Assembly (NCBI GenBank): GCA_038826135.1
Contig: JAWBON010000001.1
Span: forward strand, 22,812 to 54,811
DNA from: Candidatus Odinarchaeota archaeon
GTDB taxonomy: Archaea; Asgardarchaeota; Odinarchaeia; Odinarchaeales; Odinarchaeaceae
DNA: 32,000 bases
Direction of reading: 5' to 3'
In this document: piece after piece, positions 11,366 through 31,929 of the stretch
How the letters are laid out: each line of letters begins with the position of its first letter
How positions within the stretch are numbered: position 1 is the first letter of the stretch
Position numbers and translations under genes: made by a program
The notes under the pieces: generated by a model
The model's input: the letters and a program-made list of their open reading frames with translations, nothing else
The model's database searches: none
Told to the model about the DNA's origin: nothing

Positions 11366-11366
11366 G

Positions 11367-12339: not shown

Positions 12340-13323
12340 TTACTCTAATCCTATTTCGCGTCTAAGCTGGGCTCCAATCTTCTCTATCAGCCTCTTCTCC
12401 TCTTCAGCTCGAAGCTCACTGAGTTTACGGGAACCTTTCTGATACTCCTCTATCCATTCTTTAGAGAACTGTCCGCTCTGTATTTCTTTTAAAATTTTCT
12501 TCATATCCTCTCTTGTCTGCTTGTTTATGATTCTAGGCCCTCTTGTAAGACCTCCGTATTTCGCTGTGTTACTGACAGCCTCCCACATTCCTTTCAAACC
12601 TTTAGCGTATATCAGGTCAACTATTAGTTTCACTTCGTGGAGGCATTCATAATACGCCATTTCAGGCTGGTAACCAGCTTCTACTAGTGTGTCGAAACCG
12701 GCTTTGATAAGCTCTGTTAAACCGCCGCATAATACCACCTGCTCTCCGAACAGGTCGGTTTCAACCTCTTCTTTGAATGTTGTTTCTATAACTTGTACCC
12801 GTGTTAAACCGATAGCTTTAGCCATTGCTAGAGCTATTTTTTTAGCTGTACCAGAGTAGTCTTGAGCTACTGCCAGTAATCCAGGTACACCGAAGTTGTT
12901 TAAGTACTCTCTTCTAACAGCTTTCCCCGGTGCTTTCGGGGCTATCATAATTACGTCAACATTGTTTGGGGGTATTACCTGTTTGAAATGTATGTTGAAG
13001 GCGTGGCTGAATCCTAGAACCTTCCCGGCTGTTAAATTAGGTTTAATATCCTCTTCGTAAACTTTTTTCTGAGCTTCATCCGGTATGAGTATATGGATTA
13101 TGTCAGCTGTTCTAGTAGCCTCGCTTATGGGTAGTACTTTGAAGCCGTCTCTTTCAGCAGCTTCAGCGGTTTTACCTTTTCTCAAACCTATTATAACTTT
13201 AACCCCGCTATCCCTCATATTCATGGCTTGAGCCATACCCTGGTTTCCGTAGCCTATAACAGCTACGGTTTTGTTTTTTAAAATATTTAAGTCAGCGTCA
13301 GCATCCGTATATTTTTTAACCAT
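12340..13323 (-). CDS. ilvC: Ketol-acid reductoisomerase (class I)
   Basis: IGYGNQG, FSHAFNIH, APKAPG, ETDLFGEQVVLCGG, AYYECLHE, SNTAKYG. GGAGG SD 7 nt upstream. Confidence 0.97.
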   Translation of the reverse strand: MVKKYTDADADLNILKNKTVAVIGYGNQGMAQAMNMRDSGVKVIIGLRKGKTAEAAERDGFKVLPISEATRTADIIHILIPDEAQKKVYEEDIKPNLTAGKVLGFSHAFNIHFKQVIPPNNVDVIMIAPKAPGKAVRREYLNNFGVPGLLAVAQDYSGTAKKIALAMAKAIGLTRVQVIETTFKEEVETDLFGEQVVLCGGLTELIKAGFDTLVEAGYQPEMAYYECLHEVKLIVDLIYAKGLKGMWEAVSNTAKYGGLTRGPRIINKQTREDMKKILKEIQSGQFSKEWIEEYQKGSRKLSELRAEEEKRLIEKIGAQLRREIGLE

Positions 13324-13334
13324 TTAAACTCCTC

Positions 13335-13811
13335 CTATCTTTTCAAAGCTATTATACCGGATCTAACTATTTCCGTTACATATTTCTGTTCTATATGGTT
13401 TAGTATATGGTCTATCTCGCTGATGGGGCCGCTGATCTCTATCGCGTGTCCTTTAACATAGCTTACTAATGAGACGTTAGACTCCCTTGTTAACTGTTTG
13501 ATTTGTTCAAGAATATTCTCATGGTGGTTTTTAAGTTTAATTATAACTAGCTCTCTGACAACAGCCTCCTCAGCTCTTAGCTGAGTTATTTTTTTAACAG
13601 ATATCAGCCTGCTTAATAGGTTTCTCATAAACTTTGCTTTCTTAGGGTCTGCGTCAAATGACATTATTATTCGCGCTGTTCTCTCACTGAGCTCTGATGG
13701 CCCTACTGAGATTCTAGATATGTTGACAGCTCTTCTGCTGAATATGGAGACTACTCTCTGCATTACACCAGGCTCGTCGTCAACTATAAGTGAAAATATG
13801 TAATGTGGCAT
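13335..13811 (-). CDS. ilvN: Acetolactate synthase small (regulatory, ACT) subunit
   Basis: DDEPGVMQRVVSIFSRRAVNI ACT motif and C-terminal EIVRSG. Located between ilvB and ilvC. Confidence 0.9.
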   Translation of the reverse strand: MPHYIFSLIVDDEPGVMQRVVSIFSRRAVNISRISVGPSELSERTARIIMSFDADPKKAKFMRNLLSRLISVKKITQLRAEEAVVRELVIIKLKNHHENILEQIKQLTRESNVSLVSYVKGHAIEISGPISEIDHILNHIEQKYVTEIVRSGIIALKR

Positions 13812-13815
13812 CTTA

Positions 13816-15486: not shown

Positions 15487-15660
15487 ATTCAAAAAGACCA
15501 CTCTCCGGTGGGAAAAATATTCTGGTTTACAAATAATAGAGGTGAAAAACCGCAGTTTTTATTTTGGTTTGGAGGACGGGATTGAAAGGTAGCTTCTAGC
15601 CTAGATAATAAAGTAATTCCCCTTATCCAGGGGATTGACAAAGCTAGTCCTCCTTAACAT
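15487..15660 (-). promoter_or_regulatory. Candidate structured 5' leader of the ilv operon (nested stems, uORFs, oligo-T tracts)
   Basis: On the minus strand GGAGGAC pairs with GTCCTCC and TAGCTT with AAGCTA. Internal hairpin TCCCCT-GGATA-AGGGGA, hairpin AAAAAC-TGCG-GTTTTT, three T5 tracts, and a TATA-like TTTTTAAG at 15688-15681. Confidence 0.5.
15489..15641 (-). CDS. Candidate 50-aa leader peptide (uORF) MSIPWIRGITLLSRLEATFQSRPPNQNKNCGFSPLLFVNQNIFPTGEWSF
   Basis: AGGAGG exactly 7 nt before a TTG. The TGA stop lies 2 nt before the ilvB ATG. Six of the first 15 codons are Ile/Leu. Not in the ORF track. Confidence 0.4.
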   Translation of the reverse strand: MSIPWIRGITLLSRLEATFQSRPPNQNKNCGFSPLLFVNQNIFPTGEWSF

Positions 15661-15704: not shown

Positions 15705-16412
15705 TTAACTTTTTCGTAGTCTTTTATGTCTAATCGTTTTCTTAACTTTTTTTACGGGTTCTCTATCTGTTTTATCAACGGTTTTCGAGGCTGCTAAAAA
15801 CCAGTATGCTTGGAATATTAAAGCTGCGATCATAATTATAATTCCGGCTGTTAAATAAATCATATATCCCGCCATAGAGGCTAGCATAAGAATAGCGGTT
15901 ATCGTTAAAACTTGTTTAAGTTGAAGATAACCTGTGAACTCTTTTACAGCTATGTAAAGCATTAGAATCCATACAACCAGATATATGATTAGAGGTGCTA
16001 GTGTAAAAGATGAAAGAATGTTAATCAAGTACACTATGTTTGAAACTGTTTCAGACTCGCCTATAATATTGGACGCTAAAACCACCAGTAGGCTAGCTCT
16101 GCTTATTTGGAGGGCTGTGTTTATGAGAACATACCATAAATACCCTTTCAGGAAGATTCGGGTTTTACCTGTGTTTTTGAAAATATACTCGTTCGGTGTT
16201 AGAATCTTATAGCTGAAATATATTATAAAAAGCAGTAGCGCCTCTGTCAAAATGATTATTAATAAAATAATGGTTGTAAGAAGTGTGCTGGGAGGGTAAA
16301 ATAATATTACAAGATGTGTAATATATATTAAGGCAACTACTAGACTGGAGAAAAATCCTCTAAGCGTTTTTTTAACGTTTTCACTAAGCTCGTCTTTTAG
16401 CAAAATCCCCAC
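15705..16412 (-). CDS. Hypothetical membrane protein (about 6 TM) with basic C-terminal tail
   Basis: 235-aa hydrophobic ORF ending VKKVKKTIRHKRLRKS. Confidence 0.75.
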   Translation of the reverse strand: MGILLKDELSENVKKTLRGFFSSLVVALIYITHLVILFYPPSTLLTTIILLIIILTEALLLFIIYFSYKILTPNEYIFKNTGKTRIFLKGYLWYVLINTALQISRASLLVVLASNIIGESETVSNIVYLINILSSFTLAPLIIYLVVWILMLYIAVKEFTGYLQLKQVLTITAILMLASMAGYMIYLTAGIIIMIAALIFQAYWFLAASKTVDKTDREPVKKVKKTIRHKRLRKS

Positions 16413-16877: not shown

Positions 16878-17453
16878 ATGGGTGGTAAGGAACCGTTAAT
16901 CAGCTTTGAAGCTCTTCTATCAGATATACTTAAAGGTGTGGCTGGTATTCAAAAAATGGTTGAGGAGCTTAACCGGAATTTAATTTCCTCACAGGAAGCT
17001 CAGAAAGAATCTATTATAAGTAGATTAGAACAGATGGAAACTTATTTCCACTCTATGAAGGAGACAACTGAGCTTTTAAACGAGTTGTTAGCAGAGTTAA
17101 GGATTTTGGTACCAACCCTGCATATAAATAAATTAATTGAAGAGGTTAAATCCGCTGGGTTCCAGGTTAAAAAAGAAGCTTCCACGGTGTCGGAGAAGTT
17201 TAGAGACTTCAGAGATGAGGCGGCTTATAATATTCAAACTAGAACCTCTCAGAAACAGGTTACAGCACCCGTTGAGGCTGAACCACCATTCTCCCCGACT
17301 CCAGCTTTGGAACCAGGCGTGCAGGAGGCGGCTTCTGAGAAGAAGGAGCCTGATGTGGTTTACAGCTCCAAGGTCCCATCCTATGTGAAGGAGAAGAAGA
17401 AGCCTAAATCAATATGGGCGGGGATTAGAGATGAAGAGGAGCAGGTTCAATGA
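16878..17453 (+). CDS. Hypothetical protein: N-terminal coiled coil plus Pro/Glu-rich linker and charged tail
   Basis: 191-aa ORF with heptad-like helices over about residues 8-95. ATGGTG SD-like sequence upstream. Confidence 0.8.
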   Translation: MGGKEPLISFEALLSDILKGVAGIQKMVEELNRNLISSQEAQKESIISRLEQMETYFHSMKETTELLNELLAELRILVPTLHINKLIEEVKSAGFQVKKEASTVSEKFRDFRDEAAYNIQTRTSQKQVTAPVEAEPPFSPTPALEPGVQEAASEKKEPDVVYSSKVPSYVKEKKKPKSIWAGIRDEEEQVQ

Positions 17454-18688: not shown

Positions 18689-18727
18689 TGGAATTCATCT
18701 CCAAATAATTGTTATGTCACACCACGT

Positions 18728-19174
18728 TTATATGAATAATGTGATATCCGCGTCAGCTGCCATGTCTATGAACGCTGCTGCTCCTAGAACTTTTTCAACC
18801 TCTGGAATAAGATCTTCTTTTTTAAGCCCCATAAGCTCCATTGTAGCTGAGCACGCGTATATGTGCGTGTTTCCTAACTCGACTGTTTGCTTAACAAGGT
18901 CTTTCAGATCAGGGAATCCGGCTTTCTTCATTTTACTCTTCATCATACCTGTACCTATACGCATGACTCCTGGTAGTTTAGCTGACTCTAATCCGCCTTT
19001 TTTAAGCAGATTTAGCCCCCAGAAAGTGAAGAATAAGTGTGTTTCAATATCTGATGCGCCGGCTGCTGCTGCTAATATGAATGGTGGATAAGCTTTATCT
19101 AATGTACCGCTGTGGACGATTATACACATTTTCTTGTTTTTTTCAGTTTTATTCATCTTGGTTTTCCCGCTCAC
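18728..19174 (-). CDS. DsrE2/YrkE-like (DsrE/F superfamily) sulfur-transfer protein
   Basis: HSGTLDKAYPPFILAAAA, LFFTFWGL, YACSATMELMG. Start placed at the GTG at 19174 from SD spacing (ORF track 19183). Confidence 0.85.
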   Translation of the reverse strand: MSGKTKMNKTEKNKKMCIIVHSGTLDKAYPPFILAAAAGASDIETHLFFTFWGLNLLKKGGLESAKLPGVMRIGTGMMKSKMKKAGFPDLKDLVKQTVELGNTHIYACSATMELMGLKKEDLIPEVEKVLGAAAFIDMAADADITLFI

Positions 19175-19298
19175 GTTTACCACCTTTTAAAATATTATTT
19201 TAATTTACATATTTATTCGTAAAGTTTTTAAATATTTCTGCTATAATTTAAATAATTTTAAAATAATAGGTTCTTAACCGAAAAATTTTTAACGGTGT

Positions 19299-19667
19299 AT
19301 GAAAATGGCGAAAATAGGTTTTCTTTTAATGACCGCCCCGTACACTCTTCAAAACTCTGACACTCTTCTAAAACTAGTTGAAACATTATTAAGCGAAGGC
19401 CACACGATAACGGGCATATACCTTTACGTGGATGGTGTTTACAACGCTAACAGAAAGATTGATCCCAAATCCCCTGAGGAGAGAAATATCCCCCAACTAT
19501 TTCAAAAACTAGCCGCTACCGGTGTTCCGGTGAAAGTGTGCCCTGTCTGCGCAAACTACAGAGGCATCGGCGAGGAGGACCTGATAGCTGGAGCTGAATT
19601 TGACGGTTTAGGCGGTTTAGCTGAAATATTCGAGGAATCTGATAAGATAATAACGTTCACTGGATAG
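19299..19667 (+). CDS. dsrE: DsrE/TusD-family sulfur relay protein
   Basis: LMTAPY, IYLYVDGVYNAN, VCPVCANYRG (active Cys), GLGGLAE. Confidence 0.85.
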   Translation: MKMAKIGFLLMTAPYTLQNSDTLLKLVETLLSEGHTITGIYLYVDGVYNANRKIDPKSPEERNIPQLFQKLAATGVPVKVCPVCANYRGIGEEDLIAGAEFDGLGGLAEIFEESDKIITFTG

Positions 19668-19674
19668 TGGTAAT

Positions 19675-20034
19675 ATGGATTCAGCTATAATAGTGTTCAG
19701 TAAAAGCCCCTACGGTCATATTAATATTATCGAGGGTGCTAGAGTCGCTCAAGGCCTACTTGTATTAGATAAAAATGTGGCGTGCGTGTTTACAGATGAT
19801 GGTGTGATAAGCTTACTAAAAAACCAGGAACCATCAGCGATAGGTGTGAACCCTGTTAAAATAGTGTTAACGTACTTGGTGAACTTGGGGGTTGAATTCT
19901 ACGCGCTGAAACACTCACTAGATGAAAGAGGATTAAGTAAATCAATGTTAGAGGACCAGTATAATGTTAAAATAATAAATTTAGATGAATTCACAGTTAT
20001 CCAGGATAAATTTGATACCGTGATATTCTTTTAG
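19675..20034 (+). CDS. dsrF: DsrF/TusC-family sulfur relay protein
   Basis: KSPYG, VFTDDGVISLLKNQEP, HSLDERGL. Directly follows dsrE. Confidence 0.85.
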   Translation: MDSAIIVFSKSPYGHINIIEGARVAQGLLVLDKNVACVFTDDGVISLLKNQEPSAIGVNPVKIVLTYLVNLGVEFYALKHSLDERGLSKSMLEDQYNVKIINLDEFTVIQDKFDTVIFF

Positions 20035-20045
20035 GAGAGACCGTT

Positions 20046-20372
20046 ATGAAGTCAACACTATATCTCTGTAATAAATCCCCTTATAATGTGAAAGGGTTTG
20101 AAACTCTTTTAAAAATGGTGAACGCTCAAGCAAACCGTGGGGTTAAAACCGGGCTAGCGCTTTTACAAGACGCTGTGGCCTGCATCACAGGGGAAGCTTC
20201 TAAAAAACTTAATGAGCTTTCAAAATCAGTGAAAATATATATTTTATTAGAGGATGTTAAGGCTAGGGGATTAGCGGATTTGAATTCAATAAGCTCTCCA
20301 GTCCTTGTAACATACAAGGAACTGGTGAACATCATAGTGAAAGAGTATGATCGTATTGTAAACTATTTATAA
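20046..20372 (+). CDS. dsrH: DsrH/TusB-family sulfur relay protein
   Basis: NKSPY, LLQDAV, LLEDVKARGL, VTYKELVNII. Third gene of the EFH triad. Confidence 0.85.
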   Translation: MKSTLYLCNKSPYNVKGFETLLKMVNAQANRGVKTGLALLQDAVACITGEASKKLNELSKSVKIYILLEDVKARGLADLNSISSPVLVTYKELVNIIVKEYDRIVNYL

Positions 20373-20381
20373 AATGAGTAA

Positions 20382-20828
20382 GTGAGAAGATTGAAGCTCG
20401 ATGAAAGAGATCAAAAGATAATAGAGATCTTAAAGAATAATGCTAGAACACCAGTTAAAGAAATAGCTGGGAAACTAGGCTTATCAGTTTCAACTGTTAG
20501 TTTAAGAATTAAAAACCTGGTTAAAAAAAATATTATAAAAGGGTTTAAAACTGTGATAAACCAGGCGCTTATAGAGGATGCCTGTCAGCTAGTTTTAGAG
20601 ATCGCTGCGGATAAAGCTGAGAACATTAATGAACTGGGTAAAGCGTTAAGCGCTAAAGAGAATATCTGCCTTGTTTTAAACATCACAGGGGAGTATGACT
20701 TTCTCGTCTTCAGCAAGTGTAAAGATTCGCTTGAAGGAGCCGCCTTCTTAAACGAGCTTAGGAAATTGAAAGGTGTTTCTAAAATCAAATCCCACTATGT
20801 TCTGCAGAAGTTGAAAGTCGAGTTTTAA
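20382..20828 (+). CDS. Lrp/AsnC-family transcriptional regulator
   Basis: LDERDQKIIEILKNNARTPVKEIAGKLGLSVSTVSLRIKNL HTH and a RAM domain with ITGEYDF. Confidence 0.93.
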   Translation: MRRLKLDERDQKIIEILKNNARTPVKEIAGKLGLSVSTVSLRIKNLVKKNIIKGFKTVINQALIEDACQLVLEIAADKAENINELGKALSAKENICLVLNITGEYDFLVFSKCKDSLEGAAFLNELRKLKGVSKIKSHYVLQKLKVEF

Positions 20829-20891
20829 CTAAAAGTTTTTAAAAAACGTAGTGTAATCAGTTATACTAAGAGTTTTATACGAGGCGTGTTG

Positions 20892-23800
20892 ATGGCGGCT
20901 TTAATCGCAGATGTTAAAGCTACTTTTTCGAAAGGTAATGAGAAATGGGTTTGGGAGAAAAAAACAGACGGCTGGGTTTTAGAAGGCATATATCTGGGTG
21001 GTAAAAAACTCGGATGGGAGAAAACCCCCGGTAACCTAATCGTCTACGAAAATAATTCAATAGTAAATTATAAACTTATCTTCGATCAAGTACAGGAAAC
21101 CCCGGATGGGTTAGTATTCTCTGGTTCAAATGAATTATACGAGGTTAAAAAAATCTGGTTTTTCGGTGAAGATACACCTAAACTTGTATTCGCGTTTAAA
21201 GCTAAGAAGCGTCTTGAAATAGATCTTTTAGAAGCTCCTGTTCTCATATACGCTCCTAAAAACCTCCTGTATTCCTTCATCGGCGGTTTAAGATACTCGA
21301 AGAACAGTTCATTCGATGTTGTAAACCGAGTATTCAATTTCCCCTATCCTTTTTCAACATATTATAAGGTGAAGATACCTCCCAGAGAGATAAACGGCTC
21401 CTGGTATAGAAGCTTAATATATTGTAAAATGCCTTTAGCCCTATATAATTCACGCAAATACTATTTTGGATTAATATTTAACCCTGTGGAGAAAACCAGT
21501 TCGGGAAGAGAGCTACTACACTCCATAAGATTTGATGGAGCCGGGTTAAAAACAGAAAACACAGTGTCCCTATCCTACTGCACTCATATGGTATATTCGA
21601 AGAGAAACATTTGGCTTGGACTGCCTTCTAAACCACGCCGTTTAAAAATCACGCTCAACCCTTTAGAAGAGGTTTACACAACTGTCAACTTCATATACGG
21701 TCTCGGTAAATGGTATGAGGCTGTGGAAAAATTCTTTAAAGTAAATCCTTTAACGGAACCACACCTGACCGTTGACCCTAAAACCGTGGCTTCTAAAACT
21801 AAAAACGCTTTCTGGAGAGCTTGGGAGAGCAGGCTTAAAACATTTCTGCAATTACCTTTTAAGCGAAGCCCGGGATTCTTACTCGAAAACCTTCTCTTCT
21901 CTCTCACATCATTCGACGCGGAGCGTCTCTCCAATTTCTACGACTATTATACTTTGACAGGTGACCGCGTATTCAAATACTGGGTTAACTGTTTGAGAAG
22001 TAATCTTCTAAGCAGGCGTGTAATAGAAGTTAAAAACAACTATAAAATATGGCATAATGGAATAGCTTTTAACGGCGTGACCGGTGAAGGTTATACTTAT
22101 CTCTGGACAGGTTACGCCGGTTACCCTGGCGGTCAAGCCACCATAGTCTTCCGCCTATTAGAATACTATTCTAAAAAGCTTCAAACAAGCGGTCTATCCG
22201 ACCAGCGGGTTTTAAATAATGCATTAGACGGTTTAGACTGGATTCTCTCAACACAGAAGCGTAACGGCGCCTGGAGGAGTGCTTTAAAAATATTTAGAGA
22301 ATACCCGGCTAGGAGAATCGACTACTCTCTTCAGGAATCGGTTGGTGGAAGCGCTGAATGCATAAGAGCTTTAATATTAGCTTTTAAACTGACAAGGGAT
22401 AGAAAATACAGAGATGCTGCTGTGAACGGTTTAAAATGGCTTAACGGTAAAGGAGAGTCCGTTCTAGGATATAACTATCTACGCGACGCTGGTGTATACG
22501 AAGAGGAGGGGATCTCTGCAATAGTGGCTGCTCAAGCTAATCTAGACGCTTATGAAGCTTTTCAAGACGACATATACTATAAATACTCGCTGATATGGGG
22601 TAAATATCTTTTAACATGGCATTATCTATGGGAGTCTGAAAGGTTAAAGATCAGGTTCGGCTTCGACCCATTATCGTGGTCAATAACACCTAGAGTAGCC
22701 CCATACGAGACCGCTATGGTCTTATCAGTATACTCTAGATTATACAAGCTCACTGGGGATGATTTCTGGAAGAAAATATTTATTCAAACATACAATAAGC
22801 TTTCAGAATTCCAGGAGTCTGACGGCGGCTTAAGTGAAACATACTTTTTCAACTATCTAAAAGGATTAGCGGAAATCCCTGTTCAACAAACATTCGCCGC
22901 TAACGAATTACTAAAAGCGTCAATACAGTACATGAACCTTGACAGTGTTATAAAATTTAATGTTGAAGGGGATAAGATAATAATAATTGAGAGAAACAAT
23001 CTTCTTAAAGAAATAATTCGAACAGGTAACATTCTCCAGGTAAAATTATCAAACAACTCTGATCACATAAGTCAACCGTTTAAACTCGTATCCAACATCC
23101 TAGATAAGAGCACAGTGTTCATCGCAGATAAAGAGGTCGCTTCCAGAAGAGGGTGTGAAGTCTACGGGCTTATGGTTAACGCTAAATCCGATACTCAGAT
23201 CACTATTAAAATGGAACCCTCTAAATCACCGTCACTAACCATGTATGGTGTAGAAGATTATTCAGCCGCTTATGATAGTAAGACTGGTTTATTAAAATTG
23301 GAATACACTGGTGGACAACCGCGATTAAATCTTATAAAAACCAGCCCGGGAAAAATATTTTTAACACTTGACCGTGATAAAGCAACTCTTATAGAGCTCC
23401 CCGGTGAAAAATTGAAAACTGTTAAAGTAAATCTCCCGCCAGGGCATCACACAGCTGAATTAAGTTTTTCAGATAAAACTGAGCTGAGAGACTGGGCTGA
23501 TACCGATTCAAGTATTAGAATACCTTTGTTAATATACCCTAAATTAATATCGAATAAAAGTGAAAGCCTGGTAAGGCTTAAAGCTGATAAAATTATACAG
23601 AGTGCTCCATTCCAGATTAAAAAATCGCTTATAAAATTTCTAAGAGGGAAAGAAGAGATCCCGTTCTATATTCCAGGTAAATCAGAAATACTTGAAAGCC
23701 AGGATGAGATTATATTAAAACTTAGATTAGATAAACCCGCTGTAAAAATTCACATGTATTACGGGTCTCAGAGCAGGTTTAAGCCTGAATCAGATTTGAA

Positions 23801-25805
23801 AGCTAACCTTGAAAAAGGCTGGCTTAACGTATTTGTAAAAGACGGTGCCAGGTGGATTAATCAGTTTACTATAAACAGGTTTGAAAAACCTGAGATAGTA
23901 TTCAACAGCGACTCATCTCATAGTGTAAGCTTAAAACTATCCTTCTGGGACGCTTACTCTAAAACCTCTAGGTTTTTAACCGGTATTCGCAAGGCTTTAA
24001 GAAAATACAGTTTAAGGCTTCTACTAGGTTTAGAAAACATAAGGGATCTATTATACGGCGTAGCTGATAGAAAAATTTCTGATACATTACGTGTTCAGAG
24101 CCTTGAAAAATTCAAGGTGAATAAATACTCTCTTCAAGCGGATTGCAACCCTGCTTTAAACTGTCTAATAGCGGATTACCGGTTTGAAACAGATCTCCAC
24201 AGGGTTATAGCGAAAATATACGTTTTAAAAAATAATAATAGCTTATATTTGGTTTTTAACCCCTTGAAAATCCGTGTTATGCAGGAGGATCTTAAAAGAA
24301 CCTGGCAGTCTCTCACACCGTTGATAACAGGCGACATTAAAGATTTCAAAAGCATCTCAACCAACGAGCTGCAGTTAACATTGAATAACGGTAAATCCAT
24401 TAAATGGATGATATTTGACAGTGATAGGACAACAGGCACAGCTATGGGGGCTATTAGATCAAATGTAAACAGTGTAGGCGTGGATGTCTCTCTTAAAACA
24501 AACTGGGTTCACGCCGGTGAATACTATCAGTATAGTTCTCTTATAGTGGAGGATGGTAAACAAGCAGTGGAGGGTGTGAATCATCTGGAGTATTTATGTA
24601 ATTTTTCATCAACAGATTATATTGCAGGAGCCGTGCAAACGCGTAAACCAGGGTTAGCAGCTGAATTAACAACACCTCAGACGATGACTGTTAAACCGTT
24701 AAAGATTGCTTTAATATATCCTGGAGCCGCTCACGGAATATACCATTATGTGCGTCATCTTAGAAATATGTTGAAGAAACAGGGTTTAATAGTGAAAGGA
24801 TTCTATTTCCCGGAGGAGAAGGTTACCAAGCCTATGATGAGTGATGATAAACCTTTAACAGTTAAATTGAAGATAGGTGAATTCTACTTTGTTTTACCTG
24901 ATAAAAAAGCATCTAACACGATTCTTGAAAAAGAATATAAGAAAGACCCGTTTGATATAATTCACCTTCACTGGCCTACCACAACCTGGGATAGTTATGT
25001 TTTCGAATTCGCGGAGAAGTATAGGCTTCCTTTATGCGTTAACCTGCACTACGCTCTATCACTTAGAGATGACGCTTACGGTCTTCTATCCCGGTTAATG
25101 TATAATATTAGTAAGCGCTACCTCAGGAAAAGTGATAGAATAGTTGTCACATCTAAAGCTCAGGAAAACTTTGTTAAAAGTTTAGGTTACCCTTCAGTCA
25201 CCCATATACCCACAGGGGTTGACGTCAACTATTTTAAACCCTGTGTGAAATTACCTAGTAAAATTAAAACTATACTATATGTCGGGCGAATCTCACCTGA
25301 GAAAAACGTTGAAGCCTTGATTAAAGCCTTTAAAAAATGTGATTTTAAAGGTGTACGCCTAGTTCTTGTTGGGAAGGGGCCTTTATTGAAACGGTTGAGA
25401 AGCAAGTATATTGGCGGCGATGTTTTATTCACCGGATATATCTCCGAAGCGGAGAAGCTTAAGTACTTGCAGAATTCAGATCTATTTGTAACAGCGACTA
25501 AAATGGAGTTGATGAGTATAGCTGTTCTTGAAGCTATGGCTGCGGGTCTACCTGTAGTAACCTCCAGGCTTGAAGCGTTCGAAGAATTCGTCACCAGAGA
25601 TGTGGGGAGAATGATAGAGTTAAACAAGGATTTTGAAGATAATCTAGCCGCTACTATGAAAGAGTTAATTGGCAACGATCGTTTAAGGGCTGCTATGGGT
25701 AAAGCTGCTCGGGAGAAAGCTGTCAGACTATGCTCATGGGATATTATAGGCGCCAAGTTTAAGAAACTGTACGAAAGTATGGTTCAACCCCATGTTAATC
25801 GTTAA
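20892..25805 (+). CDS. Large multidomain protein: beta-rich N-terminus, (alpha/alpha)6 six-hairpin glycosidase-like barrel, beta-rich middle, C-terminal GT4 glycosyltransferase
   Basis: The GT4 domain (from about 24684) has LKIALIYP, DIIHLH, ILYVGRISPEKNV, LVLVGKGP, ELMSIAVLEAMAAGLPVV (EX7E). The barrel has repeats such as AFKLTRDRKYRDAA, LYKLTGDDFW, QKRNGAW and QESDGG. GAGG lies 7 nt before the ATG at 20892 (ORF track 20886). Confidence 0.85.
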   Translation: MAALIADVKATFSKGNEKWVWEKKTDGWVLEGIYLGGKKLGWEKTPGNLIVYENNSIVNYKLIFDQVQETPDGLVFSGSNELYEVKKIWFFGEDTPKLVFAFKAKKRLEIDLLEAPVLIYAPKNLLYSFIGGLRYSKNSSFDVVNRVFNFPYPFSTYYKVKIPPREINGSWYRSLIYCKMPLALYNSRKYYFGLIFNPVEKTSSGRELLHSIRFDGAGLKTENTVSLSYCTHMVYSKRNIWLGLPSKPRRLKITLNPLEEVYTTVNFIYGLGKWYEAVEKFFKVNPLTEPHLTVDPKTVASKTKNAFWRAWESRLKTFLQLPFKRSPGFLLENLLFSLTSFDAERLSNFYDYYTLTGDRVFKYWVNCLRSNLLSRRVIEVKNNYKIWHNGIAFNGVTGEGYTYLWTGYAGYPGGQATIVFRLLEYYSKKLQTSGLSDQRVLNNALDGLDWILSTQKRNGAWRSALKIFREYPARRIDYSLQESVGGSAECIRALILAFKLTRDRKYRDAAVNGLKWLNGKGESVLGYNYLRDAGVYEEEGISAIVAAQANLDAYEAFQDDIYYKYSLIWGKYLLTWHYLWESERLKIRFGFDPLSWSITPRVAPYETAMVLSVYSRLYKLTGDDFWKKIFIQTYNKLSEFQESDGGLSETYFFNYLKGLAEIPVQQTFAANELLKASIQYMNLDSVIKFNVEGDKIIIIERNNLLKEIIRTGNILQVKLSNNSDHISQPFKLVSNILDKSTVFIADKEVASRRGCEVYGLMVNAKSDTQITIKMEPSKSPSLTMYGVEDYSAAYDSKTGLLKLEYTGGQPRLNLIKTSPGKIFLTLDRDKATLIELPGEKLKTVKVNLPPGHHTAELSFSDKTELRDWADTDSSIRIPLLIYPKLISNKSESLVRLKADKIIQSAPFQIKKSLIKFLRGKEEIPFYIPGKSEILESQDEIILKLRLDKPAVKIHMYYGSQSRFKPESDLKANLEKGWLNVFVKDGARWINQFTINRFEKPEIVFNSDSSHSVSLKLSFWDAYSKTSRFLTGIRKALRKYSLRLLLGLENIRDLLYGVADRKISDTLRVQSLEKFKVNKYSLQADCNPALNCLIADYRFETDLHRVIAKIYVLKNNNSLYLVFNPLKIRVMQEDLKRTWQSLTPLITGDIKDFKSISTNELQLTLNNGKSIKWMIFDSDRTTGTAMGAIRSNVNSVGVDVSLKTNWVHAGEYYQYSSLIVEDGKQAVEGVNHLEYLCNFSSTDYIAGAVQTRKPGLAAELTTPQTMTVKPLKIALIYPGAAHGIYHYVRHLRNMLKKQGLIVKGFYFPEEKVTKPMMSDDKPLTVKLKIGEFYFVLPDKKASNTILEKEYKKDPFDIIHLHWPTTTWDSYVFEFAEKYRLPLCVNLHYALSLRDDAYGLLSRLMYNISKRYLRKSDRIVVTSKAQENFVKSLGYPSVTHIPTGVDVNYFKPCVKLPSKIKTILYVGRISPEKNVEALIKAFKKCDFKGVRLVLVGKGPLLKRLRSKYIGGDVLFTGYISEAEKLKYLQNSDLFVTATKMELMSIAVLEAMAAGLPVVTSRLEAFEEFVTRDVGRMIELNKDFEDNLAATMKELIGNDRLRAAMGKAAREKAVRLCSWDIIGAKFKKLYESMVQPHVNR

Positions 25806-25816: not shown

Positions 25817-26833
25817 CTATGTTTGCTCCATGTTTTTAATTATTTCCACGGTGAATTCTTTAGTTGACAGGGTTCCACCGATATCCGGGGTTTTTTTACC
25901 TTGAGCTAGGGTTTTGATTAAGGCTTTTTCAATTTTTTCAGCTGAAACCGACGCTTCACGGTCGCCGTGTTTTAAACCAATCCAATCTAGCATCATCTTT
26001 GCACTGAGTATCATCGCGGTTGGATTCGCATAGTTCTTATTTTTCATGCTGAAAGCCGCGCCGTGGACTGGTTCAAACATGCCTTTATCCTCACTTAGAT
26101 TCGCACCCGGACATAGACCTAAACCACCCTGCACCCATGAGGCTAAATCACTTAGAATATCACCGAACATGTTCTCAGTTAATATCACATCGAACTGTGA
26201 GGGGTTTTTAACTAGTTGATATGCACAGTTGTCCACGTACATTTCATTAATCTCTATCCCCGGATAGTTTTTACCAATATTTCTGCATATGTTTCTGAAG
26301 AACACGTCTGAGATTAAAACATTTGATTTATCCACTATGGTTAGTTTTCCTCTTCTCCTCGAAGCCTGCTCGCACGCGATTCTCATAATTCTCTCAGTAG
26401 CTTTCCTGGTTATTAGACGCGTGTTAAAAGCGAAATCCTCTTGAAGAGTCTCTATCCTAGAGTATAATCCCTCAGAGTTCTCTCTTACAATAAGCAGATT
26501 AACCTCTTCACCCTCATATAATCTGGATTTGACTCCCGGCAGGCTTCTAGCAGGTCTCAGGTTTACGAAGAGGCCTAACCCCTGTCTTAAAGGTAAAACC
26601 ACTTCTTTAGCAGTCTCCCCTGAAGGGCCTTTTAATATAAGCTCGCTTTCAGCCGCCGCGTTCAAGGTTTCTTTAGGCATAGCTGAACCGTATTTCTCCG
26701 CAGCCGCATCTCCAGCTTCGTAAAATGAGAATTCGAATCTCAAATTCGTGTTCTTTAAAACCTCTACAGCGGATTCAACTATACTTGGACCTATACCATC
26801 TCCCGGGATAACCATAACCTTGTATGTTCTCAT
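25817..26833 (-). CDS. leuB: 3-isopropylmalate dehydrogenase (isocitrate/isopropylmalate dehydrogenase family)
   Basis: IPGDGIG, LFVNLRP, VRENSEG, DKSNV, ENMFGDILSD, FEPVHG, ANPTAMILS. The leuB call rests on linkage with leuCD. Confidence 0.85.
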   Translation of the reverse strand: MRTYKVMVIPGDGIGPSIVESAVEVLKNTNLRFEFSFYEAGDAAAEKYGSAMPKETLNAAAESELILKGPSGETAKEVVLPLRQGLGLFVNLRPARSLPGVKSRLYEGEEVNLLIVRENSEGLYSRIETLQEDFAFNTRLITRKATERIMRIACEQASRRRGKLTIVDKSNVLISDVFFRNICRNIGKNYPGIEINEMYVDNCAYQLVKNPSQFDVILTENMFGDILSDLASWVQGGLGLCPGANLSEDKGMFEPVHGAAFSMKNKNYANPTAMILSAKMMLDWIGLKHGDREASVSAEKIEKALIKTLAQGKKTPDIGGTLSTKEFTVEIIKNMEQT

Positions 26834-26836
26834 ATT

Positions 26837-27346
26837 TTAACCTCTAACCTTGAATAATCTGTTTTTAAGATAGTTTACAAGACCACCGGCGTTTAATATC
26901 TCCATAAGGAACCCCGGTATCGGCTTCGCGTTCAAGCTTTCACCGTTAGATAAATTTTTTATCTCACCCGTGTCTAGGTTAACGCTCAGAGTATCCCCTT
27001 CACCTGTTATATTCGATATTCCTTCAGCTATTATCGCCGGTAATCCGATGTTAATAGAGTTCCTGTAGAATATTCTAGCTATTGAATCAGCTAGTATTAG
27101 TTTAATACCGGACTCTTTTAAAACTTCAGGAGCCTGCTGTCTGGAGCTGCCGGAGCCGAAGTTTCTACCAGCGACGATTATCTGAGCGCCTTGAGCAATT
27201 TTCTTATGGAATTCAGGGTCAATAGTCTCCATAGCATATTTCGCCATTAAGTTAATATTACTGCCGTAAACAAGTCTGTGACCGGCGATTATAACATCCG
27301 TGTCTATGTGGTCACCGTACTTGATTACTTTACTTTTAATCATCAT
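26837..27346 (-). CDS. leuD: 3-isopropylmalate dehydratase small subunit (archaeal LeuD/HacB type)
   Basis: GDHIDTDVII, AGRNFGSGSSRQQA, IARIFYRNSINIGLP. The substrate loop HRLVY resembles the IPMI-type YLVY rather than the homoaconitase YLRT. Confidence 0.88.
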   Translation of the reverse strand: MMIKSKVIKYGDHIDTDVIIAGHRLVYGSNINLMAKYAMETIDPEFHKKIAQGAQIIVAGRNFGSGSSRQQAPEVLKESGIKLILADSIARIFYRNSINIGLPAIIAEGISNITGEGDTLSVNLDTGEIKNLSNGESLNAKPIPGFLMEILNAGGLVNYLKNRLFKVRG

Positions 27347-28603
27347 CTAAAGATCCCTCGGATCGGTTATTCTACCAGTTACAGCTGAAGCTGCAACAGT
27401 CGCGGGTGAGGCTAAATACACTTTCGAAGCCGGGTCACCCATTCTCCCTTTAAAGTTACGGTTAGTTGAAGCTATAGCTATCTCACCTTTACCTAACACT
27501 CCCATATGCCCGCCTATGCAGGGCCCGCATGTTGGTGTTGAAACCGCGGCTCCTGCTTTAAGGAATATTTTCAGCAAACCGTTTTCAAGGGCTTTCATAT
27601 ATATTTTCTGTGTAGCTGGAATTATTATCAACCTCACGTTAGGGGCAATCCTTTTATCTCTTAAAATTCTCGCTGCAACCTGTAGATCAGAGTATCTGCC
27701 GCCTGTGCATGAGCCTATAACAGCTTGATCTATTTCAATATTATTCAGCTCCCTGGCGTTTTTAATATTAGAGGGCAGGTATGGCTCCGCGACTGTAGGC
27801 TCTATTTTCTCTGCTTCAAAATCTATAATCTCCTTATAATCCGCATCCTCATCGCTTTTAAACACGTTGAAGCCTCCTCTAACCCTGCTTTCAACATATT
27901 CTATTGTTTTCTCATCAGGGTTGATTACACCATTCTTAGCCCCCGCTTCAATCGCCATATTGCAGAGCACAAATCTCTCATCCATTGATAGACTTCTCAC
28001 CGTGCTCCCGTCAAACTCCATCGCCATATATAAAGCTCCGTCAACACCTATTCTCCCTATTATGTTTAAAATAACGTCCTTAGCGTAAACGAATCGTTTA
28101 AGCCTACCGTTTACATTAAATTTCACTGTTTCAGGAACCCTGAACCAGCATTTACCTGTAGCGAAAACCGCAGCCATTTCAGTTGTCCCTATTCCTGTGG
28201 CGAAAGCTCCAACAGCTCCATGTGTACATGTGTGACTGTCAGTCCCCACTATAACTATTCCAGGTCTAGCGAACCCCTCCTCAGGTAACATTACATGACA
28301 GATACCATGACTGCCTATCGGATAGTAATTTTTAATTCCCTGCTCTCGTACGAATTTATCCATTTCAAGGTAAAGATTCGCTGCTTCAATATCCTTTGCG
28401 GGTATAAAATGATCGGGAGTAACAACTATCTTGCTTCTATCCCATACTTGTTTTAAACCGATCTTTCTAAACTCGTTAGCAACCGGGCCGCAGAGTACAT
28501 CATGAGTTAACGCTATATCGATCTCTGCGTTCACAATCTCCCCTGGAGAGGTCTTCTTAAGCCCGCTTGCTTTAGCAAGTATTTTCTCGGTTATCGTAGG
28601 CAT
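27347..28603 (-). CDS. leuC: 3-isopropylmalate dehydratase large subunit (archaeal LeuC/HacA type)
   Basis: HD, GICH, GTDSHTCTHGA, CNMAIEAGAK, Fe-S ligands GSCTGGR and CGPCIG, STNRNFKGRMG. The ATG at 28603 follows an AAGGTG SD (ORF track 28612). Confidence 0.9.
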   Translation of the reverse strand: MPTITEKILAKASGLKKTSPGEIVNAEIDIALTHDVLCGPVANEFRKIGLKQVWDRSKIVVTPDHFIPAKDIEAANLYLEMDKFVREQGIKNYYPIGSHGICHVMLPEEGFARPGIVIVGTDSHTCTHGAVGAFATGIGTTEMAAVFATGKCWFRVPETVKFNVNGRLKRFVYAKDVILNIIGRIGVDGALYMAMEFDGSTVRSLSMDERFVLCNMAIEAGAKNGVINPDEKTIEYVESRVRGGFNVFKSDEDADYKEIIDFEAEKIEPTVAEPYLPSNIKNARELNNIEIDQAVIGSCTGGRYSDLQVAARILRDKRIAPNVRLIIIPATQKIYMKALENGLLKIFLKAGAAVSTPTCGPCIGGHMGVLGKGEIAIASTNRNFKGRMGDPASKVYLASPATVAASAVTGRITDPRDL

Positions 28604-28781
28604 ATAATGCACCTTAAAATGAATACAGTTATTAAAATATAACTTTTAGCCTTGATATACTCTACACAGCTTTAGTTTTTCGCAACTTAGCTGATATAGT
28701 TTACTTCACGGGGCAGACATATTCTTAAATATAAATTTTTGATATAATTATTTAGCGATTTAATCGCTTGGAGGTTATCAA

Positions 28782-28994: not shown

Positions 28995-29378
28995 TTATGG
29001 AATAAGCAGTTTCACGTACTCTATTTTATTGCTGGTTATGTAACGGTTTACAAGCTCTTTTATTCTATTTGCATCGCCTTCTATTATGAATATTTCCAAG
29101 CATTTATTCTGTCTTGTTTGACTGTGTATTTGTGTGCGTATTATATCTGTGTATTCGTGTTTTAATTGGCTGACGAAGTTTTCAGCGTCATGGTCGTGTA
29201 TCAGTAATAGGACTGAGTGTATGGTTCCTTCTAGTTTTTCTTTTTCAACGCTGTCTGCTAGTAACATTCTTAAACCAGCTCTTACAAGTTCGGATCGGCC
29301 TGTGAATCCTAGTTCCTTGCGGAGTTTTTCTATTTGGTCGAGTATCCGCTGGTTTAATGATAGGCTGATTATTGGCAT
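28995..29378 (-). CDS. NikR-family (ribbon-helix-helix plus ACT-like) metal-responsive regulator
   Basis: IISLSL...GRSELVRAGLR RHH domain and C-terminal KHEY...IHSQ...KCLE metal-site region. Divergent from the metal ABC operon. Confidence 0.88.
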   Translation of the reverse strand: MPIISLSLNQRILDQIEKLRKELGFTGRSELVRAGLRMLLADSVEKEKLEGTIHSVLLLIHDHDAENFVSQLKHEYTDIIRTQIHSQTRQNKCLEIFIIEGDANRIKELVNRYITSNKIEYVKLLIP

Positions 29379-29382
29379 GATT

Positions 29383-29452
29383 TTAATAAGTTATTAAGTT
29401 ATTTATAAACCTAACCATAATTGTTATTAACAAAATATTTATAAGTTAATAA
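29383..29452. promoter_or_regulatory. Divergent promoter region with TATA-like boxes and inverted repeats (candidate operator)
   Basis: TTTATAAA at 29402-29409 (towards the regulator) and TTTATAAG at 29438-29445 (towards znuA). Inverted repeats TTAATAA-G-TTATTAA (29383-29397) and TTATTAAC-N13-GTTAATAA (29424-29452). Confidence 0.45.
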
Positions 29453-29471
29453 TTAATACTAACTTCCTGAT

Positions 29472-30341
29472 ATGCTAGATAAAAAAACGCTGGGCGGTGT
29501 AATAACACTTCTTATAATAACAACCGCAGGTGTAAGCTCATTTTTAATTCTATCAAACCCTCAAATAAACCCCGCAGGATCCAAGATAAGTATAGCAGTC
29601 ACTATACCGGTTCAGGCTGAAATCGCGGAAATGATCGGCGGAGGGCATGTTAAGGTGACTGTTCTCGTCCCTTCAGGAGCAGACCCACACTCCTACGAGC
29701 CAACTCCAAGCCAGTTAACCGAGCTCAGCGCCGCTCAAATATATTTCTTCATAGGTTCAGGTTTAGAGTTCGAATTAACCTGGTGGGATCAGATAACCTC
29801 TATTAACCCTAATATTCTATTAGTGAACGCCAGTGAAGGAGTAACTATAGAGGATAAAGACCCTCACATATGGACTTCACCGCGTAACGTTAAGATTATG
29901 GCTGAAAACCTGCATAAAGCTCTTTTACAATTGGATCCCTCGAACCAGGTTGACTATGACTCTAATCTGGCAGCTTATCTTAGAGCGCTTGATTTTCTAG
30001 ACAACTATGTTATGGAAAGTCTTGGAAACTATACTAACAGGGTTTTTTTAATATTCCACCCCGCCTTCAACTATTTTGCTAAAGCATACAATTTAACGCA
30101 GATAAGCATAGAGGAGGAAGGGAAACCTGTAACACCTCAATCACTTCAATGGGCTGTGGAAAACGCCAGCTTATATAATTTAACAATCGTGTTCGCGTCA
30201 CCGCAATTTGACACATCCTACGCTGAAACAGTGGCTGAGCAGATAAGCGGCCGCGTGGTTTTACTAAACCATCTGGATGAAAACTATTTTCTCACGATAT
30301 TAAGATTTGTAAGTTATCTTATTGAAGAATTCGAGAGTTAA
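29472..30341 (+). CDS. znuA: Zn/Mn-type ABC transporter substrate-binding protein (ZnuA/AdcA-like)
   Basis: N-terminal TM anchor. DPHSYEP, DPHIW and FHPAF supply three His ligands (Zn-type; PsaA has Glu at the third position). Confidence 0.85.
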   Translation: MLDKKTLGGVITLLIITTAGVSSFLILSNPQINPAGSKISIAVTIPVQAEIAEMIGGGHVKVTVLVPSGADPHSYEPTPSQLTELSAAQIYFFIGSGLEFELTWWDQITSINPNILLVNASEGVTIEDKDPHIWTSPRNVKIMAENLHKALLQLDPSNQVDYDSNLAAYLRALDFLDNYVMESLGNYTNRVFLIFHPAFNYFAKAYNLTQISIEEEGKPVTPQSLQWAVENASLYNLTIVFASPQFDTSYAETVAEQISGRVVLLNHLDENYFLTILRFVSYLIEEFES

Positions 30342-30352
30342 AGGTGATTTAA

Positions 30353-31111
30353 ATGAGTGGAGAGATTGTCTCGATTAAAAATATTTGGGTTAAATACGAC
30401 GGTTACAATGTTTTAGAGGATGTTTCACTATCAATATTTGAACATGATCTTTTAGCGGTTATAGGTGTGAACGGCGGGGGTAAGTCAACGCTTCTTAAAG
30501 TAATTGCTGGTTTAATCAAACCGTTTAAAGGAGAGGTTAAAGTTTTCGGTAACAGTCCTGAGAAAGCCAGAGATTTCATCGGATATTTGCCGCAATATAA
30601 TGTTTTCGATTTAAACTTTCCAATCACAGTTTTAGACGTGGTTTTAACAGGTATTCTCGGTAAAAAACTTCTTTTAAAAAATTACTCTAAAGAAGACCGG
30701 GAGGCTGCTTTCGAAGCCTTGAAAACTGTTAAAATGGCGGGTTTCGAAGATAGGAAGCTGGGTTCATTATCCGGAGGGCAGCTTCAACGTGTATTAATAG
30801 CGAGAGCGATAATTAAAAAACCTAGACTGCTGCTTTTAGACGAGCCGACGTCCAGTCTAGACTCGGATATGCAGAAATCATTTTACGAGCTGCTTTTAGA
30901 ACTTAAAAATAAGATGAGTATAATAATAGTCTCCCATGATATTGGTGTAATATCCTCCTATGTTGATAAAATGGCTTGTTTGAATAAACGCCTATATTAC
31001 CACGGTCCTGTTGAAGGGGCTTTAGCAACTCTGCAAGACGTTTACCAGTGTCCTGTTGAATTGATAGCTCACGGTGTACCTCACAGGGTTTTAGGGAGGC
31101 ATGAGGATTGA
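30353..31111 (+). CDS. znuC: Zn/Mn-type ABC transporter ATP-binding protein
   Basis: Walker [36 protein letters not shown]. Confidence 0.9.
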
Positions 31112-31929
31112 TATTCGAAATTTTCGCATACGGTTTTATGAGGAATGCTTTAATAGCCGCTATACTAGTTAGCATAGCATGCGGGGTTGTGGGGACACTG
31201 GTTGTTTTAAAAAAACTGGTTTTTATGAGCGGCGGCATCTCCCATTCAGCCTTCGGGGGGATTGGGTTAGGCTATCTTCTAGGTTTAAATCCTGTGTTAG
31301 TAGCGGTCCCCTTCAGCATAGCAGCCTCTCTGAGTATAGGTGTGATAGGTAAAAAAACAAGGGTCAGCGAGGATGTATCGATAGGAATAATGTGGGCGGT
31401 TGGCATGGCTGCTGGTATAATATTTGTTAACCTTGCTCCCGGATATGCTCCGGATCTTTTCAGCTACTTGTTCGGTAGTATTCTAACAGTTCCAGTCTTT
31501 GATTTAATGTTAATGTTCATATTAGACATGGTTATATTGATGATATTTCTCCTCTTCCATAAAGAGTTTTATGCAATGTCTTTTGATGAAGAGTTTGCGA
31601 AAGTTTCCGGCGTTCCTGTAAGAGCCTTATACTATACTCTCCTAGGAATGATCGGTCTTAGTGTCGTGATACTGATAAGAGTTGTCGGCATTATACTCGT
31701 TATCGCGCTTTTAACAATCCCAACCGTGATCAGCATGCAATTCACTCACGGAATCAAGAAACTGACGGTTTTATCAACTATACTCGGATTAGCGTCAACG
31801 ATTACAGGTTTATTGCTCTCATATATTTTCAATCTGACATCCGGAGCCACTATAGTGATGGTTTTAGCAGCAGCTTTTTTAATCTCTTCAACTGTTAAAC
31901 GTTTAAAACAGGTAAAAAACGTTTTTTAA
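31108..31929 (+). CDS. znuB: Zn/Mn-type ABC transporter permease
   Basis: [46 protein letters not shown]. Overlaps znuC by 4 nt. Confidence 0.9.

Follow-up and report, generated by a model that had tools for sequence, protein, structure and literature searches.

The best worked-out analogue of the protein described here is the mycobacterial pair formed by the family GT4 glycosyltransferase ManT and the (alpha/alpha)6 endomannosidase MmpH, in which MmpH cuts the mature polymer to primers and the GT4 enzyme re-elongates them (PMC9883506). A precedent for joining a glycosyltransferase and glycoside-hydrolase-like domains in one giant chain is provided by Cgs, a cyclic glucan synthase, where a GT84 domain is combined with a CY domain that is homologous to GH144 endoglucanases and processes the transferase's chain (PMC10901819). 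In the GpgS/GpgD/GpgF operon, moreover, a GT4 enzyme and a flippase-like protein of the LPG_synthase_TM type make, and are predicted to export, the membrane glycolipid GlcN-PG (PMC12713373). Here we report on a gene of Candidatus Odinarchaeota that encodes a three-domain glycosidase-like module and a GT4 domain in a single polypeptide of 1,637 residues. It lies in a stretch of 32,000 nucleotides (nt) of contig JAWBON010000001.1 (positions 22,812 to 54,811, forward strand; assembly GCA_038826135.1), the whole of which we refer to as the window. The window is part of one contig of an Odinarchaeia metagenome-assembled genome (MAG) of 1.26 Mb in 105 contigs that is 93% complete, and the nearest relatives in the databases carry the label Candidatus Odinarchaeum or Odinarchaeia.

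Both components of the ManT/MmpH system resemble the two halves of the fusion. However, ManT and MmpH are separate proteins of ~430 and ~370 amino acids (aa), MmpH is devoid of flanking beta domains, the system is actinobacterial and clustered with methyltransferases, and it has no family tie to the module at the sequence level. Cgs spans the membrane several times and has a GT2-like transferase, whereas the protein from the window is predicted to be soluble, carries a GT4 domain and joins it to a module of another, undescribed family; the sequences are unrelated. With the phosphatidylinositol mannosyltransferases PimA and PimB' the GT4 domain has the GT-B fold, the EX7E motif and the GR..EK motif in common, and PimA is its closest solved relative (E 1e-22, 84 bits, query 80-366), a similarity that is at the generic GT4 level only. 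The fusion differs from these enzymes in a family-specific insert in the N-terminal half of the GT4 domain. The top NCBIfam match of the GT4 domain is GlcN_PG_synth, the model of the GlcNAc-phosphatidylglycerol synthase GpgS (NF053787), which scores 88.5 bits where the cut-off is 480; the C-terminal two-thirds of that model alone are matched. The flippase-like neighbors of unfused modules match GlcN_PG_flip at 67 bits against a cut-off of 320. The Gpg operon itself has a deacetylase and no six-hairpin module, and the Odinarchaeia genomes searched are without a flippase-like gene.

The initial annotation, made from the letters of the window, had described one uninterrupted open reading frame (ORF) without signal peptide or transmembrane (TM) segment. 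The ORF listing and a hydropathy scan agree with this. The frame is on the + strand, starts with GTG at 20886 or ATG at 20892 and ends at 25805; the ATG was taken as the start since homologue alignments begin there. A Kyte-Doolittle scan in 19-residue windows detected neither a signal peptide nor a TM segment in the 1,637-aa protein, the sole marginal hydrophobic peak being the EX7E helix that lies buried in the GT4 domain, and the fusion protein is accordingly predicted to be cytoplasmic. The features of the gene are as follows.

20892..25805, + strand: whole gene, 1,637 codons plus stop, encoding the multi-domain fusion protein (ORF listing, translation, fused homologues).
20892..21746, + strand: N-terminal beta-sandwich, aa 1-285 (AlphaFold2 model).
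21756..22946, + strand: (alpha/alpha)6 barrel, aa 289-685 (AlphaFold2 model).
22221..22274, + strand: QW-like motif, aa 444-461, ending in QKRNGAW (profile search against Protein Data Bank (PDB) sequences).
22482..22508, + strand: barrel loop 3 on the long-loop face, aa 531-539, RDAGVYEEE (loop position from the model's DSSP assignment).
22953..23771, + strand: three small beta-sandwiches, aa ~688-960, an Odinarchaeia-specific insertion (AlphaFold2 model).
23790..24614, + strand: galactose-mutarotase-like beta supersandwich, aa ~967-1241, into which a helical hairpin is inserted at aa ~1024-1055 (AlphaFold2 model).
24639..24701, + strand: linker, aa ~1250-1270, variable in length and sequence, including Met1265.
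24702..25802, + strand: GT4 (GT-B) domain, aa ~1271-1637 (Pfam, above cut-offs).
25506..25532, + strand: EX7E motif, E1539-x7-E1547 (read from the sequence).

The fusion is genuine and not a mis-assembly. A word-indexed search returned eight fused homologues that are full-length or near (1,162-1,649 aa, 38-66% identity), all with GT4 domains and all from Odinarchaeia or 'Promethearchaeota' MAGs. When 301 genomes sampled from the phylum were searched with the fusion module, it was present in 7/7 genomes of two families of one order, the window's own among them, and in 0/294 others; every match in this sample was an open frame without internal stops, and one of the genomes is a single-contig chromosome of 1.4 Mb. 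Open frames of 1,577-1,652 aa occur in five other independently assembled genomes, and in two further ones the contig end alone cuts the frame. The junction at nt 24684 is spanned without an indel by two contigs, one of 2,570 nt that belongs to the probable source sample and one of 258 nt that belongs to another sample, and no stop or frameshift splits off the GT4 gene; contigs of two additional runs do not reach the junction and carry no weight. The methionine at this position (Met1265), where a separate GT4 gene might be imagined to start, is not conserved among homologues and has no Shine-Dalgarno-like motif upstream, as the initial annotation had noted in arguing for a true fusion. It falls in a linker where the model's confidence drops below 50 at its end. 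That two or more genes were wrongly joined during assembly or annotation has nothing in its favor beyond the unusual length of the product, and is practically inconceivable in view of stop-free long frames in independent genomes (a single-contig chromosome included), eight fused database proteins, contigs from two samples across nt 24684 and an internal methionine that is not conserved. One database protein (P0029) was considered as a shorter form made of a beta domain plus GT4, and rejected as a contig-edge fragment of the full-length gene.

A complete GT-B/GT4 domain from ~24684 with an intact EX7E motif had been annotated, and Pfam confirms it at aa 1285-1612 with PF00534 (101.9 bits, cut-off 26.4), PF13692 (89.7 bits) and PF13439 (47.2 bits, cut-off 28.5). 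Both glutamates of EX7E, E1539 and E1547, are invariant in nine homologues, as is the donor motif GR..EK (G1465-R1466...E1470-K1471). After PimA, the nearest solved GT4 relatives are a sucrose-phosphate-synthase-like protein, PimB' and ManT (7QSG, E 6.6e-11). The family-specific insert at aa 1300-1336 of the fusion protein (P0001; window ~24789-24899), GFYF.EE ... GEFYFVLP, is strictly conserved, lies outside the generic GT4 profile match and could serve in acceptor binding or docking.

The N-terminal 1,270 aa, by contrast with the GT4 domain, are covered by no Pfam, NCBIfam or PDB-sequence family. With aa 1-1275 as query, phmmer found 0 matches at E <= 1 among all PDB sequences, the lone Pfam trace outside GT4 is a sub-threshold Pec_lyase match at aa 491-517, and NCBIfam returned generic GT4 similarity alone, far under every equivalog cut-off. 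Their anatomy was obtained from two AlphaFold2 models built on family alignments, one of residues 1-720 (predicted local distance difference test (pLDDT) 92, predicted template modelling score (pTM) 0.93) and one of residues 690-1275 (pLDDT 84). The layout proposed by the initial annotation, a beta-rich N-terminus followed by a barrel at ~21800-22940 and ~550 unassigned beta-rich residues, is reproduced by the models, in which a beta-sandwich of aa 1-285 packs against the barrel and the second model places beta domains behind it. Residues ~100-285 of the sandwich, including a conserved loop with the motif FPYPFSTYYK, are common to homologues that stand alone without GT4; profile matches to these proteins begin at aa ~120.

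The modelled barrel is closed and consists of twelve helices in six hairpins with the long loops all on one face, which argues for membership of the six-hairpin superfamily. The LT(G/R)D repeats reported by the annotation are present and coincide exactly with the two-residue turns of hairpins 1, 3 and 5 in the model (aa 357-358, 502-503 and 622-623, DSSP), and the two reported glutamine-glycine motifs were located at aa 455-461 (QKRNGAW) and 641-646 (QESDGG). Q455 and G459, in the QW-like segment, are at least 90% conserved family-wide. This segment alone yields weak sequence matches to squalene-hopene cyclase and Pec_lyase. A class II terpene cyclase of the squalene-hopene type was considered on a PDB profile match (E 1.8e-11) that comes from a single QW-like segment of ~22 residues aligned to every one of the cyclase's repeats, and was ruled out by the lack of a DxDD motif in the whole protein and by the presence of one barrel instead of two.

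In six-hairpin enzymes the long-loop face is the catalytic funnel. On this face R531, D532 and E537 of loop 3 are at least 90% conserved over 34 sequences and are candidates for a role in catalysis or substrate binding. At a threshold of 80% of the 34 members, the conserved residues are R309, W387, N389, Y411, Q455, W461, R492, R531, D532, E537, S542, R601, W626 and E649; with the exception of the helix-internal R309 and R492, all of them are placed by the model on, or at the ends of, the inter-hairpin loops of one face. A barrel without acids in its pocket would have spoken against the reading of the initial annotation, and what was found is a set of conserved acids on the long-loop face of the modelled barrel, where a pocket would be expected.

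Behind the barrel, three small beta-sandwiches lie between it and the C-terminal domain of the module; the third has a weak profile resemblance to DUF2341 and to the N-terminus of DUF4861. The C-terminal domain (aa ~967-1241) carries the motifs SFWD.YS, ETD.HR, FNPL and TNWVHAGEY, and its modelled fold is similar to galactose-mutarotase-like supersandwiches. With Foldseek this domain aligns with the supersandwich domains of three-domain GH/GP/PL enzymes, while sandwich plus barrel align with two-domain PL27, GH94, GH116 and GH63 enzymes (E 1e-8 to 5e-11) and with two-domain GH15 enzymes, and uncharacterised bacterial proteins of the ESM Atlas match ~640 residues at TM scores of 0.72-0.77; a family missing from these fold-search lists is not thereby excluded. 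The order of domains in the core module is that of GH15, GH63, GH65, GH94, GH116, PL26 and PL27. However, the whole-chain TM scores with these enzymes are low (0.3-0.4), there is no sequence family in common, and the ~300-aa insertion of immunoglobulin-like (Ig-like) domains and the fused GT4 are found in the fusion and in none of them. The GH76 alpha-1,6-mannanases (Bacteroides BT2949, PDB 4V1S; Bacillus circulans Aman6) are ~13% identical to the module. GH76 chains give a marginal profile match (E ~0.007), and PF03663 (GH76) has no match at E <= 0.1 on the fusion protein or on ten stand-alone homologues. The GH76 mannanases are secreted single-barrel enzymes, whereas the module is predicted to be cytoplasmic and has obligatory N- and C-terminal beta domains. 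Their catalytic residues are an adjacent Asp-Asp pair; on loop 3 the module carries the acids D532 and E537-E539, which may or may not be equivalent to it.

The module is not unique to the giant protein. A profile of aa 1-1200 had 65 matches among 1.84 billion representative proteins, and more than 25 of the 65 have lengths of 630-920 aa and match the region of aa ~120-695, the lowest E being 2e-183. These stand-alone proteins belong to no Pfam family and show sub-threshold traces of C5-epimerase, GH127, Pec_lyase and LanC models. In two archaeal ones the C-terminus is homologous to aa ~1000-1225 of the fusion (profile-profile probability 99.0% and 99.5%), with the shared motifs SFWD.YS, ETD.HR, FNPL and TNW.H.G.Y; for a bacterial one the probability is 72%. 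Since N-sandwich, barrel and C-terminal domain occur together in stand-alone proteins of ~830 aa, the conserved unit comprises three domains, which by these sequence comparisons are one evolutionary module without a Pfam or NCBIfam model. The small sandwiches, which are unaligned in the stand-alone homologues tested, lengthen the Odinarchaeia module by ~300 aa, and together with the first ~100 residues and the GT4 domain they have no counterpart in the stand-alone proteins examined. The initial annotation was thus right about a barrel fused to GT4 and has to be amended in that the fused unit is the three-domain module and not the barrel alone. Its statement that the architecture is not a recognised family holds, as neither module nor fusion was found in Pfam, NCBIfam, PDB sequences or the literature searched.

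Stand-alone modules occur in some bacteria and, among archaea, in Thermoplasmatota, Aenigmatarchaeota and Archaeoglobaceae. When species-representative genomes were scanned with 10 query sequences, 40 such loci were located. Thermoplasmatota account for most of them; the rest belong to Aenigmatarchaeota, Archaeoglobaceae, a nanohaloarchaeon, a spirochaete and an unclassified archaeon whose chromosome measures 833 kb. None of the family members scanned showed a TM segment or signal peptide, which suggests that the module works on the cytoplasmic side of glycan pathways. In a maximum-likelihood tree of 54 modules the 8 fused proteins form one clade with 100% support in the SH-like approximate likelihood-ratio test (SH-aLRT), and under midpoint rooting this clade is sister to, and not nested in, the archaeal stand-alone clade. 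This topology fits a single fusion in the Odinarchaeia stem, and it gives no sign of recent transfer. One of the stand-alone modules has an AEP-TOTE primase, a small ORF with a SWIB domain and a phage-type integrase 2.5 kb downstream (L002:13146-18574), possibly an integrated element.

The gene neighborhoods of the stand-alone modules connect them to glycan synthesis. By crude gene calling and a Pfam scan of the 65 genes immediately flanking 37 of the 40 modules, 63/65 were assigned to four types (32 GT4, 22 LPG_synthase_TM flippase-like, 7 GT2 and 2 GT28-like). Positions -2 and -3 contain 17 GT28-like genes, and the remainder there is mostly one polytopic family of ~600 aa without a Pfam match; its language-model neighbors (score 0.98), which are no more than a lead, are GT-C transferases of the PMT_2 type. 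A 605-aa protein from the Thermoplasmatota cluster, GT-C/PMT_2-like by such features only, had no meaningful PDB sequence match by profile; it was also considered as a counterpart of the fusion's middle part and rejected, as there is no similarity. The typical Thermoplasmatota cluster reads GT28-like, GT-C-like, GT4, module, flippase-like. With sizes of ~355 aa for the GT28-like, ~600 aa for the polytopic, ~322 aa for the GT4, ~830 aa for the module and ~359 aa for the LPG_synthase_TM protein, this five-gene arrangement is exemplified by L038:1204-9089 and about 20 similar loci (L031-L069) in Thermoplasmatota MAGs, of which no description was found.

Ten metagenomic contexts of more distant homologues agree with a setting in glycan clusters: GT2 or GT4 genes are immediately adjacent or overlapping in 8/10 and a GT2 gene is in the same operon in a ninth, HpnJ-like B12 radical-SAM genes are present in two, and a Wzt ABC exporter or Wzx-type flippase in two. 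At L003:6228-13227 and L009:188-11038 the distant homologues stand beside Glyco_transf_21-type GT2 genes and one to three B12-binding radical-SAM genes whose best NCBIfam match is HpnJ or BchE, under the cut-off; L003 also has a flippase-like gene, and the arrangement recalls head-group pathways of the hpnI/J/L type.

Two lines of evidence speak for cooperation between the halves of the fusion protein. In addition to the fusion itself, module and GT4 are adjacent separate genes in other archaea, which is independent support, and together the two arrangements constitute a Rosetta-stone link at the level of gene organization. Fusions of this kind reliably mark two activities on the same molecule. 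We hypothesize that the single cytoplasmic chain would be a two-enzyme glycan machine, in which the GT4 domain, a predicted retaining GT-B enzyme of the PimA/ManT type, would transfer sugar from a nucleoside-diphosphate (NDP) sugar to an acceptor and so elongate a glycan. The three-domain module would bind the same glycan in a barrel funnel lined by R531, D532, E537, E649 and aromatic residues, and would cut, transglycosylate or edit it, which could serve priming, trimming or the control of chain length. The acceptor would most likely be a glycan linked to a membrane lipid or polyprenol at the cytoplasmic face of the membrane, because the clusters around unfused modules combine transferases of the GT4, GT2 or GT28-like kind with a flippase-like protein and a membrane protein that is GT-C-like. 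An enzyme that both synthesizes and processes a glycan, with such an acceptor, is the explanation that we favor, tentatively, at a little below even chances. The initial annotation had likewise proposed a bifunctional synthase/remodelling enzyme; the architecture and the link between the halves are borne out, while activity and substrate keep the standing of predictions.

Several observations weigh against this hypothesis. The fused gene of Odinarchaeia is not within a glycan cluster, its neighbors in one family being dsrEFH-like genes, an Lrp/AsnC regulator and leuBCD. The order dsrEFH-like, lrp, fused gene, leuB is kept inside one Odinarchaeia-type family and the neighbors differ in the second, so that synteny gives no functional hint save for one neighbor in the second family, a sugar nucleotidyltransferase ~1.9 kb off in genome G053. 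LPG_synthase_TM (PF03706) was found neither in the window's genome, with its 93% completeness, nor in four relatives of 78-98% completeness, one of which is a single-contig genome with an estimated completeness of 98%; with no flippase-like gene found in these genomes, the lipid-linked or exported product is argued from homologues and not from this organism. The GT4s of the operons are only ~22% identical to the GT4 domain of the fusion, and the order is reversed, with GT4 preceding the module in operons and following it in the fusion, so the fusion is not a simple read-through. Finally, hydrolases and epimerases score equally high in fold similarity, which does not fix the chemistry.

The same two activities could instead have a soluble intracellular substrate, be it an oligo- or polysaccharide or a compatible solute, without a lipid carrier, in a cycle of cutting to primers and elongating like that of the methylmannose polysaccharide (MMP) by ManT/MmpH, here contained in one chain. 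The fully cytoplasmic prediction for the protein, the lack of a flippase-like partner in the Odinarchaeia genomes searched, the position of the gene alone among housekeeping genes and the hot-spring host are all consistent with such a product. However, stand-alone homologues are almost always found by flippase-like and GT-C-like membrane proteins, a sign that the family's product would be lipid-linked and exported; the nearest solved GT4 is the lipid-acting PimA, the beta domains are missing from MmpH, and methyltransferase genes are not seen nearby. We consider a soluble product unlikely, albeit a serious contender. Less probable still is that the module modifies an installed sugar or uronic acid, either by epimerase or isomerase chemistry of the AGE or C5-epimerase kind or by that of a lyase. 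Family members do have weak Pfam or profile matches to D-glucuronyl C5-epimerase and Pec_lyase, and a toroid followed by a beta-sandwich is the layout of PL8, PL12 and PL15. Enzymes of the AGE type use a conserved pair of histidines on the inner helices of the barrel. In the 34-sequence alignment, however, no histidine of the barrel reaches 80% conservation (H577 is invariant within the Odinarchaeia group only), the residues conserved family-wide are carboxylates, arginines and aromatics, and no genes of a uronic-acid pathway were seen nearby.

The module could also be non-catalytic, a carbohydrate-binding scaffold or molecular ruler beside a GT4 domain that is the sole enzyme. No known catalytic motif has been mapped onto it, the Ig-like insert domains and the flexible linker have the look of spacers, and a polysaccharide locus of the Wzt/ABC type contains one stand-alone homologue; in such pathways the control of chain length is a familiar theme. 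On the other hand, R531, D532, E537, E649 and R601 are strongly conserved on one face of the barrel from bacteria to archaea, a compact charged set that is more typical of an active site, and to our knowledge six-hairpin barrels of 400 residues are nearly always enzymes. A scaffold is in our judgment a poor prospect. Returning to the lipid- or polyprenol-linked glycan, a stronger version of that hypothesis would make the module a new cytoplasmic carbohydrate-active family, probably with endo-glycosidase or transglycosylase activity, and an obligatory partner of glycosyltransferases (GT4, GT2 or GT28-like) in an unrecognised archaeal pathway for lipid-linked glycans or lipoglycans. We put this forward as speculation that is rather unlikely to hold in full. 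If it were true, the five-gene cluster would encode this pathway in Thermoplasmatota, Aenigmatarchaeota and Archaeoglobaceae, and Odinarchaeia would have compressed its cytoplasmic steps into one polypeptide of 1,637 aa.

What is new here is the module, its fusion and its genomic association with GT4; the folds and the logic of combining glycosyltransferase and hydrolase are already known. No general concept is changed, because partnerships and fusions of the two are on record in ManT/MmpH and Cgs. The envelope glycolipids, lipoglycans and glycan carriers of archaea are nevertheless poorly mapped and those of Asgard archaea essentially a blank. Against this background a widespread, unnamed glycosidase-like module is tied genetically to glycosyltransferases and, in one class, physically fused to GT4. 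The Odinarchaeia protein offers an experimental entry point, one presumably thermostable, soluble protein with both predicted activities, which leads to a candidate new family of carbohydrate-active enzymes and to the product of the conserved Thermoplasmatota cluster. A total of seven GT4 matches were counted in the window's genome, which also encodes, elsewhere, a weak homologue of the cluster's GT-C-like protein.

Upstream of the start codon, consensus-level reading of the sequence suggests the following element, composed of an A/T-rich TATA-like run at 20836-20846 and a GAGG at 20881-20884 with the ATG 7 nt downstream.

20836..20884, + strand: possible archaeal promoter and ribosome-binding region.

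The genes that precede the fused gene are three DsrE/DsrH-like genes and then an Lrp/AsnC regulator. They occupy 19299-20828 of the window (+) as small consecutive DsrE/DsrE/DsrH-like genes, a sulfur-relay set of the TusBCD/DsrEFH type, plus the regulator, and the order of this set, the regulator and the giant gene is repeated in a closed relative genome. Downstream and convergent are leuB and leuDC, encoding isopropylmalate dehydrogenase and the small and large isomerase subunits (25817-28612, -). With the large and small subunits of acetolactate synthase, ketol-acid reductoisomerase, a class IV aminotransferase and dihydroxy-acid dehydratase at 9704-15501 (-), genes for branched-chain amino acids stand on both sides of the fused-gene region. 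The nucleotidyltransferase near the fused gene of G053 is a sugar-1-phosphate nucleotidyltransferase with a left-handed beta-helix tail (L017:12957-14120, +), on the strand opposite to the fused gene.

An antisense ORF of 175 aa (25229-25756, -) is contained wholly within the GT4-coding region and is probably a shadow ORF. ORFs of 125-235 aa without a Pfam match were listed at 18714-19183 (both strands), 15705-16412 (-) and 16878-17453 (+); two of them overlap nearly fully on opposite strands, so at most one of the two is likely real. Toward the end of the window, at 28995-31929, a NikR-like regulator is divergent from a metal-uptake operon of ZnuA, ABC-ATPase and ABC-3 genes.

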